From assembly GCF_003334255.1 (NCBI RefSeq), contig NZ_QOWU01000240.1: a stretch of 438 bases of DNA; one strand, written 5' to 3'. Position numbers and translations under genes: made by a program. The stretch is from Escherichia coli (GTDB taxonomy: Bacteria > Pseudomonadota > Gammaproteobacteria > Enterobacterales > Enterobacteriaceae). The notes under the pieces are model-generated. The model was not told the DNA's origin and did no database searches. It saw nothing but the letters and a program-made list of their open reading frames with translations. Positions 125 through 438 of the stretch are shown in pieces (position 1 is the stretch's first letter; every line of letters starts with the position of its first letter).

Positions 125-438
125 ATGACACAGACTGAATCAGCGATTCTGGCGCATGCCCGGCGGTGTGCGCCTGCGGAGTCGTGCGGCTTCGTGATAA
201 GCACGCCGGAGGGGGAGCGGTATATCCCTTGTGTGAATATTTCCGCAGAGCCGGAGGCGTATTTTCGTATCGCACCGGAAGACTGGCTGCGGGCAGAGAT
301 GCAGGGGGAGATTGTGGCACTGGTCCACAGTCATCCCGGTGGTCTGCCCTGGCTGAGCGAGGCTGACCGGCGGCTGCAGATAAAAAGCGCACTGCCCTGG
401 TGGCTGGTCAGCCGGGGTGACATTCACAAATTCCGCTG
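125..438 (+). CDS. K: Tail (tip) assembly protein K (gpK-like), N-terminal JAB/MPN+ domain; 3'-partial, continues downstream of the window
   Basis: ATG at 125..127, frame 2, with no stop through the window end (104 full codons plus 2 nt). Translation: MTQTESAILAHARRCAPAESCGFVISTPEGERYIPCVNISAEPEAYFRIAPEDWLRAEMQGEIVALVHSHPGGLPWLSEADRRLQIKSALPWWLVSRGDIHKFR. I recognise this as a close homolog of phage lambda gpK from its N-terminus (MTQTESAILAHARRCAP…) and from the HSHPGGLPWLSEADRRL JAMM motif. Not in the ORF track because there is no stop codon in the window. Confidence 0.93.
   Translation, partial: MTQTESAILAHARRCAPAESCGFVISTPEGERYIPCVNISAEPEAYFRIAPEDWLRAEMQGEIVALVHSHPGGLPWLSEADRRLQIKSALPWWLVSRGDIHKFR
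179..190 (+). other. JAMM/MPN+ N-terminal catalytic motif E-x-C-G (Glu19-Ser-Cys-Gly22 of K)
   Basis: Codons gag(179..181) tcg tgc ggc(188..190) encode ESCG, followed by F-V. This matches the conserved E-x-x-G-[LF] element that supplies the catalytic Glu in MPN+/JAB domains. The assignment of the Glu is by motif position, not by structure. Confidence 0.6.
326..367 (+). other. JAMM zinc-binding motif H-x-H-x7-S-x2-D (His68, His70, Ser78, Asp81 of K)
   Basis: cac(326..328) agt cat(332..334) … agc(356..358) gag gct gac(365..367) encodes HSHPGGLPWLSEAD. Spacing is exactly H-x-H-x7-S-x2-D, the canonical JAMM/MPN+ metalloisopeptidase signature. Confidence 0.85.

Follow-up and report, generated by a model that had tools for sequence, protein, structure and literature searches.

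Lambda gpK, a protein of tail tip assembly, appeared in a list of JAMM-motif proteins in 2003; its architecture of a JAB domain followed by an NlpC/P60 domain, its gene neighbourhood and its predicted substrate were described in 2006 (PMC1779556). The predicted substrate is gpI, the product of the next gene, whose N-terminal domain was assigned a ThiS/MoaD-like ubiquitin fold (Iyer, Burroughs and Aravind, 2006, PMC1779556); the K JAB domain was predicted to release this ubiquitin-like (Ubl) domain by cutting at its C-terminal glycine (Iyer et al., 2006, PMC1779556). Here we describe a stretch of 438 nucleotides (nt) of Escherichia coli DNA, which we call the window. Read on the plus strand, it has three parts, the end of gene L, a spacer and the start of gene K, and it covers the point where L meets K in a prophage tail operon of the lambda type. 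We consider it very probable that the N-terminal JAMM domain of the K protein is a zinc metallopeptidase that frees gpI's ubiquitin-like domain during assembly of the tail tip.

Three elements of this reading come from the literature: the absence of gpK from virions, the presence in virions of the C-terminal part of gpI only, and the cleavage itself. Mass spectrometry of lambda virions did not detect gpK (PMC10721106), and cryo-electron microscopy allowed only gpI residues 134/135 to 222/223 to be modelled (PMC10721106, PMC12617516), although K is required for lambda tail assembly (PMC12617516). The F-pyocin homologues are alike, with PA0639 absent from mature particles and only residues 127-200 of PA0640 seen. 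Most directly, the published summary of a Davidson lab plenary given in October 2025 states that gpK cleaves the Ubl domain of gpI, and that it does so only after gpI binds other tip proteins, which enforces the order of assembly (conference report PMC12908700). A preliminary description of the window had called the physiological substrate of gpK not well established; with the gpI Ubl domain predicted as substrate in 2006 (PMC1779556) and its cleavage reported in 2025 (PMC12908700), that statement is out of date, and the substrate question is largely closed.

Our own analysis covered the motif, family, fold, conservation and synteny of K, together with the Lambda_tail_I domain and glycine tail of gpI. 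The 5' part of gene K occupies positions 125-438 on the plus strand; it comprises the first 104 of 247 codons, the open reading frame (ORF) running past the window end, and its translation reads MTQTESAILAHARRCAPAESCGFVIS...VHSHPGGLPWLSEADRR... (the full 104 residues are MTQTESAILAHARRCAPAESCGFVISTPEGERYIPCVNISAEPEAYFRIAPEDWLRAEMQGEIVALVHSHPGGLPWLSEADRRLQIKSALPWWLVSRGDIHKFR). The ORF is a 100% DNA match to WP_062895705.1, a 'C40 family peptidase' of E. coli STEC2018-553, and the full protein on the identical record NZ_CP075665.1 has 247 amino acids. The window holds essentially the whole JAB domain, and the NlpC/P60 part was read on the identical genomic record.

Within this frame, E19-S20-C21-G22 lies at 179-190 (E19, GAG, 179-181; S20, 182-184; C21, 185-187; G22, 188-190), H68-S69-H70 at 326-334 (H68, CAC, 326-328; S69, 329-331; H70, CAT, 332-334), S78 at 356-358 (AGC) and D81 at 365-367 (GAC), all on the plus strand. 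The spacing is canonical, with H-S-H, seven residues (PGGLPWL), S, two residues (EA) and D, giving E-x(n)-H-S-H-x7-S-x2-D. The preliminary description had placed ESCG at residues 19-22 and H68-S-H70-x7-S78-x2-D81 downstream, and both translation and codon positions bear this out exactly; the interval that it gave, 179-367, runs precisely from the Glu codon through the Asp codon. In a 104-amino-acid sequence with the composition of the K fragment, 3e-5 occurrences of the core H[ST]Hx7SxxD would be expected; shuffling the fragment 100,000 times produced it seven times, and the other five frames lack it. A chance occurrence is therefore excluded.

Profile searches place the motif in a known domain. 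As the preliminary description anticipated, a HMMER search against Pfam matches the N-terminal region to Prok-JAB (PF14464): in the window fragment the match spans residues 3-98 (E = 1.7e-16, model positions 3-103 of 114), and in full-length K it spans residues 3-105 (E = 9.7e-16). The proposed combination of JAB and NlpC/P60 domains likewise holds for the full gene, in which NLPC_P60 (PF00877) covers residues 111-224 (E = 2.1e-13), beyond the window. Full K also matches the PHROG family phrog_30, 'minor tail protein', with E = 4.5e-160. The nearest well-described relative is lambda gpK (TAPK), which is 89% identical over the 104 window residues, has identical catalytic residues and shares both the L-K-I-J synteny and the two-domain architecture. 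Eleven substitutions separate the two JAB domains, none of them at a motif position; at residue 49 lambda has Met where the window encodes Ile, and this prophage differs further in having an ompC-like gene upstream of L. The K homologue of phage BP-4795 is closer still, at 99% identity to the window fragment. The JAMM site is real but already known, and the protein belongs to both the lambda gpK family and the prokaryotic JAB/JAMM family, in agreement with the earlier view that this is a known gene family rather than a new gene. We note separately that codon 96 (410-412) is AGC, Ser, in the window, whereas lambda has Cys and 56 of 57 distinct close relatives in IMG/VR differ from the window at this codon; since residue 96 varies among distant homologues, the change to Ser is probably neutral.

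Comparison with solved structures gives each motif residue a predicted role. In a phmmer search of Protein Data Bank (PDB) sequences the K fragment aligns to 2KKS with E-x-C-G, HSHP and S-x2-D in register. A profile of 101 K family members, again with the motifs in register, matches 2KKS (E = 3e-14), 2KCQ (E = 2.5e-13) and PfJAMM1 of Pyrococcus furiosus (5LDA/5LD9, E = 2e-11), and more weakly AfJAMM, Rpn11-like proteins and BRCC36. AfJAMM binds zinc through H67, H69 and D80, uses E22 to hold the water and has S77 next to the oxyanion hole, and mutation of the equivalent Glu and Ser in Csn5 abolishes deneddylation (PMC300881). E19, H68, H70, S78 and D81 of K correspond one-to-one to AfJAMM E22, H67, H69, S77 and D80 (PMC300881). 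By analogy, E19 is predicted to be the general base that holds the catalytic water, with C21 and G22 as family-conserved neighbours; H68 and H70 are predicted zinc ligands, with S69 bracing the Glu; S78 is the predicted stabiliser of the tetrahedral intermediate; and D81 is the predicted third zinc ligand. The alignments to 2KKS, 2KCQ and PfJAMM1, taken with the AfJAMM roles, uphold the earlier statement that all of these residues stand at catalytic positions.

The AlphaFold2 model of full-length K has a predicted local distance difference test score (pLDDT) of 97.4 and a predicted template modelling score of 0.91, and predicts a JAMM (cytidine-deaminase-like) alpha/beta fold for the N-terminal domain. 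A Foldseek search of the PDB with this model returned PfJAMM1 as the best match, including its complex with the ubiquitin-like SAMP2 (template modelling score 0.68, root-mean-square deviation 2.6 Å). It also returned 2KKS, AMSH, CSN5 and Rpn11, and for the C-terminal half MepS/Spr, LytE and CwlO. Structure prediction had been put forward in the preliminary description as a check, with Rpn11 and AMSH named as relatives; the confident JAMM-fold model and the presence of both proteins among the Foldseek matches agree with it. No gpK-family protein was among the solved structures matched by the K profile in PDB sequences or by Foldseek in the PDB.

These matches also show where K departs from better-known JAMM enzymes. 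The archaeal desampylases, to which PfJAMM1 belongs, are minimal single-domain JAMM enzymes that cut after the Gly-Gly of a beta-grasp modifier. Identity to K is only about 20%, and K is fused to an NlpC/P60 domain; moreover, desampylases cut an isopeptide bond, whereas K is proposed to cut a peptide bond within the gpI polypeptide. Against the NCBIfam model of the Haloferax/halobacterial desampylase (NF041370) K scores 30.4 bits, far below the cut-off of 130, which makes it a relative and not an orthologue. The eukaryotic isopeptidases Rpn11, CSN5, AMSH/STAMBP and BRCC36 share the motif and the fold (Foldseek E values of 1e-4 to 1e-3, with weak profile matches), but at 12-20% identity, and K lacks both their Ins-1/Ins-2 insertions and an MPN- partner subunit; they act in large complexes on ubiquitin or Nedd8.

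Conservation across the family argues that the site is in use. A search of 1.84 billion cluster representatives yielded 2,830 relatives; 106 full-length representatives, none more than 57% identical to the query, were aligned with it in MAFFT (107 sequences in all). H68, H70 and D81 are kept in all 107 sequences, E19 in 105, C21 in 100 and G22 in 106; position 78 is Ser in 100 and Thr in six, and position 69 is Ser in 102 and Thr in five. An independent alignment of 101 sequences has G22, N38, H68, H70, D81 and D120 as its sole invariant columns, and the H-to-S spacer of the motif differs by at least one residue in some homologues. For codon comparison we used the 57 distinct IMG/VR relatives, from a search with an 11-sequence K alignment as query that gave relatives 83-96% identical. 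Synonymous differences numbered 14 at S69, 16 at H70, 20 at S78 and one at D81, with no non-synonymous difference at these catalytic codons; the JAB domain as a whole has 432 non-synonymous codon differences in the same set. The pattern supports selection for catalysis rather than a relic motif, and the strict conservation on which the preliminary description had based its expectation of an active enzyme is confirmed by the invariant zinc ligands and the synonymous-only catalytic codons.

The same data bear on the idea that the domain is a catalytically silent scaffold, an MPN-type binding module that merely chaperones gpI or gpJ. Many MPN domains, such as Rpn8 and CSN6, are indeed non-catalytic, and AfJAMM had no detectable activity in vitro (PMC300881). 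However, non-catalytic MPN domains have lost the motif, whereas the five K positions are kept in more than 100 divergent homologues and their codons are under purifying selection. We regard a silent scaffold as highly improbable.

The proposed substrate is encoded immediately downstream. Gene order is L-K-I-J in the identical record NZ_CP075665.1 (in coordinates of the extracted locus, L 7416-8114, K 8125-8868, I 8865-9446 or from 8766, J 9698-13228), and likewise in lambda, N15 and SSL-2009a. The PGAP annotation starts gene I at an internal GTG at locus position 8865 (8865-9446, 193 amino acids). No stop interrupts the frame as far back as an ATG 99 nt upstream (8766-9446, 226 amino acids; MATTNAF...ARICLHGDLQRFGRR...), and the long gene overlaps K by 103 nt, as in the lambda RefSeq record. 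On the 226-residue protein, Pfam Lambda_tail_I (PF06805) covers residues 15-97 (E = 2.9e-16, model positions 3-83), whereas the 193-residue protein gives only a partial match (model positions 26-83); the PGAP start is too late and cuts into the ubiquitin-like domain. The same short annotation of gene I recurs in a second locus, at 6865-7446. In the long protein VPRLAGAGKGG closes the Lambda_tail_I domain; next come a hydrophobic stretch and a C-terminal domain. G96 and G101 of this tail are invariant in 13 diverse gpI homologues, including those of lambda, N15, a Dhillonvirus, a Moraxella phage and a Vibrio phage.

We propose that the gene K product is a two-domain assembly enzyme that is not kept in the virion and whose JAMM domain is active. 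H68, H70 and D81 would hold Zn2+, E19 would activate a water molecule bound to the zinc, and S78 would stabilise the tetrahedral intermediate. The substrate would be gpI, with its N-terminal ubiquitin-like domain ending in the conserved glycine tail, followed by the hydrophobic linker and the C-terminal plug domain, the part kept in the tail tip. K would cut after the glycine tail and so release the ubiquitin-like domain; by the conference report it would do so only after gpI docks with other tip proteins, and a cut made only once gpI is docked would act as an assembly checkpoint. We infer that the JAMM domain is the part of K that makes the cut, and likewise the exact scissile bond in gpI; the metal at the site would, from the motif, be zinc.

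Several observations weigh against this proposal. What directly supports cleavage is a conference summary one paragraph long, which does not name the protease domain of K that cuts (PMC12908700), and the literature searched yielded no full paper describing how gpK cleaves gpI. AfJAMM carries the same motif and was inactive in vitro on the substrates tested (PMC300881), so an intact motif alone is no proof that K is active, and the AlphaFold2 model of K carries no metal. For gpI, an AlphaFold2 model of the 226-residue protein from a 40-sequence alignment reached a pLDDT of only 43.9 and gives no independent support for a ubiquitin-like fold. Profile comparison of the gpI Ubl region by hhalign with E. 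coli MoaD was weak (E = 0.008, probability 4.8%), although it placed G96 on MoaD G80, in the C-terminal Gly-Gly; the comparisons with ThiS (E = 0.14) and with Staphylococcus aureus MoaD 2Q5W (E = 1.3) were weaker. The register of G96 on the MoaD Gly-Gly is suggestive without being significant, and the fold assignment rests on the 2006 study (PMC1779556).

The question of which K domain cuts what allows a division of labour in which NlpC/P60 cuts gpI and the JAMM domain processes another tail protein, for example the tape measure protein gpH to gpH*. The catalyst of gpH cleavage has been stated to be unknown (PMC12617516), and K has two conserved protease sites: C121 is kept in 104 of the 107 aligned sequences, H187 in 102, H199 in 102 and H200 in 98, so that each is present in at least 98. 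The conference summary leaves the responsible domain unnamed (PMC12908700), but it applies the word 'deubiquitinating' to the K domain where it speaks directly of the gpI Ubl domain (PMC12908700). Cutting after the C-terminal Gly-Gly of a beta-grasp modifier is typical of JAMM enzymes; PfJAMM1, the closest relative by structure, acts in this way on SAMP2, and gpI offers such a tail. Timing also differs, since gpH is cleaved late, after tube assembly (PMC12617516), whereas K acts at the tip stage. A different tail protein as the JAMM substrate therefore seems unlikely to us.

A further possibility is that the JAMM site is a counter-defence deubiquitinase (DUB) that mainly or additionally strips host Ubl conjugated by Bil from the central fibre gpJ. 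Hor et al. speculate along these lines for siphophage tail assembly proteins with DUB domains (bioRxiv 10.1101/2023.09.04.556158), and K acts while J, the Bil target, is being assembled. The host-encoded CBASS Cap3 and Bil DUB likewise have JAB domains of prokaryotic type and a connection to both ubiquitin-like proteins and phage tails; they work with E1/E2 partners, however, and the K operon has no E1/E2. The K JAB domain matched no PADLOC model, those for Cap3 and the Bil DUB included, at E values up to 1, which argues against a close link to the DUBs of defence systems. The cognate Ubl gene adjoins K in the loci examined (the identical record, lambda, N15 and SSL-2009a) and makes a counter-defence role unnecessary; K is reported to cleave the gpI Ubl (PMC12908700), and tail assembly needs K even in hosts without Bil (PMC12617516). 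We therefore think counter-defence quite unlikely as an account of the site. Removal of Bil-type conjugates from the fibre J as a second job of the same JAMM site, beside the checkpoint role, is also unlikely in our estimation; if it were true, gpK would be an assembly checkpoint enzyme and a counter-defence deubiquitinase in one.

We looked at the co-occurrence of K and I in six individual phage records. One of these is Pseudomonas phage YMC11/02/R656, where the region at locus 2483-5291 begins with a K homologue that keeps the HSH...S..D motif intact. The annotation of the roughly 2 kb 3' of K in that record (locus 3233-5291) shows several small hypothetical genes and nothing I-like; I and J may lie further downstream. 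Databases also contain predicted K-I, I-K and L-I fusion proteins (seven were noted), and the PHROG family phrog_28576 runs from K into I. Frameshifts in prophage remnants or errors of assembly could account for them, and some could be genuine examples of the TAPI-JAB fusions mentioned by Iyer et al. (2006). The PDB chains 25vf_9 and 9l9p_A are gpI homologues of about 200 amino acids ('putative phage tail assembly protein'), and their deposited sequences include the N-terminal Ubl region.

The start of gene K matters for the motif, because reference lambda records begin the gene too late. RefSeq lambda NC_001416.1 annotates K at 14276-14875 (locus 977-1576) as 199 amino acids starting from Met49; this start omits residues 1-48, the catalytic Glu19 among them, and leaves 148 nt after L as 'non-coding'. 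In the lambda record KT232076 (locus 2609-3244) K begins at a GTG and has 211 amino acids, and Glu19 is likewise cut off. Between them, the two late starts remove the first 36-48 residues of the JAB domain. In the window, codon 49 (269-271) is ATC, Ile, so that a late start at Met49 is impossible and the gene can begin only at ATG 125, where the N-termini of homologues align. The K frame is free of stops from the window start (2-124) and hence overlaps the end of gene L. An in-frame ATG at 65-67 was rejected as the start of K, since a gene beginning there would share 50 nt with L and the homologues begin at ATG 125 in the alignment; it is probably unused. Two minus-strand ORFs opposite K, at 123-392 and 140-427 (89 and 95 amino acids, both with GTG starts), were also rejected as genes, because the coding frame facing them is strongly conserved and the matching records annotate no gene on the minus strand. 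Most likely they arise as a side effect of the GC-rich coding sequence.

Upstream of K, the 3' end of the tail tip gene L occupies positions 1-114 on the plus strand (the last 37 codons and the stop TAA at 112-114), with the frame-1 translation PTTDIRKDRCSKCMRGCELRRNVGNFGGFLSINKLSQ*. The protein annotated as 'phage minor tail protein L' in NZ_CP075665.1 ends in exactly these residues. Cys codons at 28-30, 37-39 and 49-51 form C-x2-C-x3-C, part of a C-terminal Cys-rich segment; the C-terminal domain of lambda gpL holds an iron-sulfur cluster, whose function was still called unknown in the cryo-electron microscopy paper (PMC10721106). The L-K spacer (115-124, plus strand) is 10 nt long, as read directly from the sequence, and no obvious Shine-Dalgarno sequence was seen in it on direct reading. 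Translation of K is therefore probably coupled to that of L. A promoter and terminator scan of the window found no promoter-like site, only chance-level matches, and an Rfam scan of the window likewise gave chance-level matches only.

The window is 100% identical to positions 352264-352701 of the E. coli STEC2018-553 chromosome (NZ_CP075665.1), in the tail operon of a lambdoid prophage annotated as 'minor tail protein L', 'C40 family peptidase', 'tail assembly protein' and 'tail tip protein J'. Window-related DNA is present in 2,297 of 5,426 complete E. coli genomes (about 42%), with a median of two copies per positive genome, and a DNA search found it in 172 phage records, mostly of Stx-converting phages. 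The name PPompW, borne by related phage records, may hint at an ompW integration site. The ompC-like gene of this prophage encodes a 387-amino-acid 'porin OmpC' at locus 6056-7219, within the tail operon between an M-like tail gene and L, and looks like a moron insertion.

As a discovery the finding carries little weight, the motif having been known since 2003 and the substrate prediction since 2006, with an experimental account in 2025. Its practical value lies in annotation. Reference records name K only 'C40 family peptidase' or 'minor tail protein', and to these sparse names are added the late start of K in RefSeq lambda and the late PGAP start of I. A search of phage genomes for ubiquitin-like systems that relied on such annotations would miss a very widespread viral Ubl/DUB pair.

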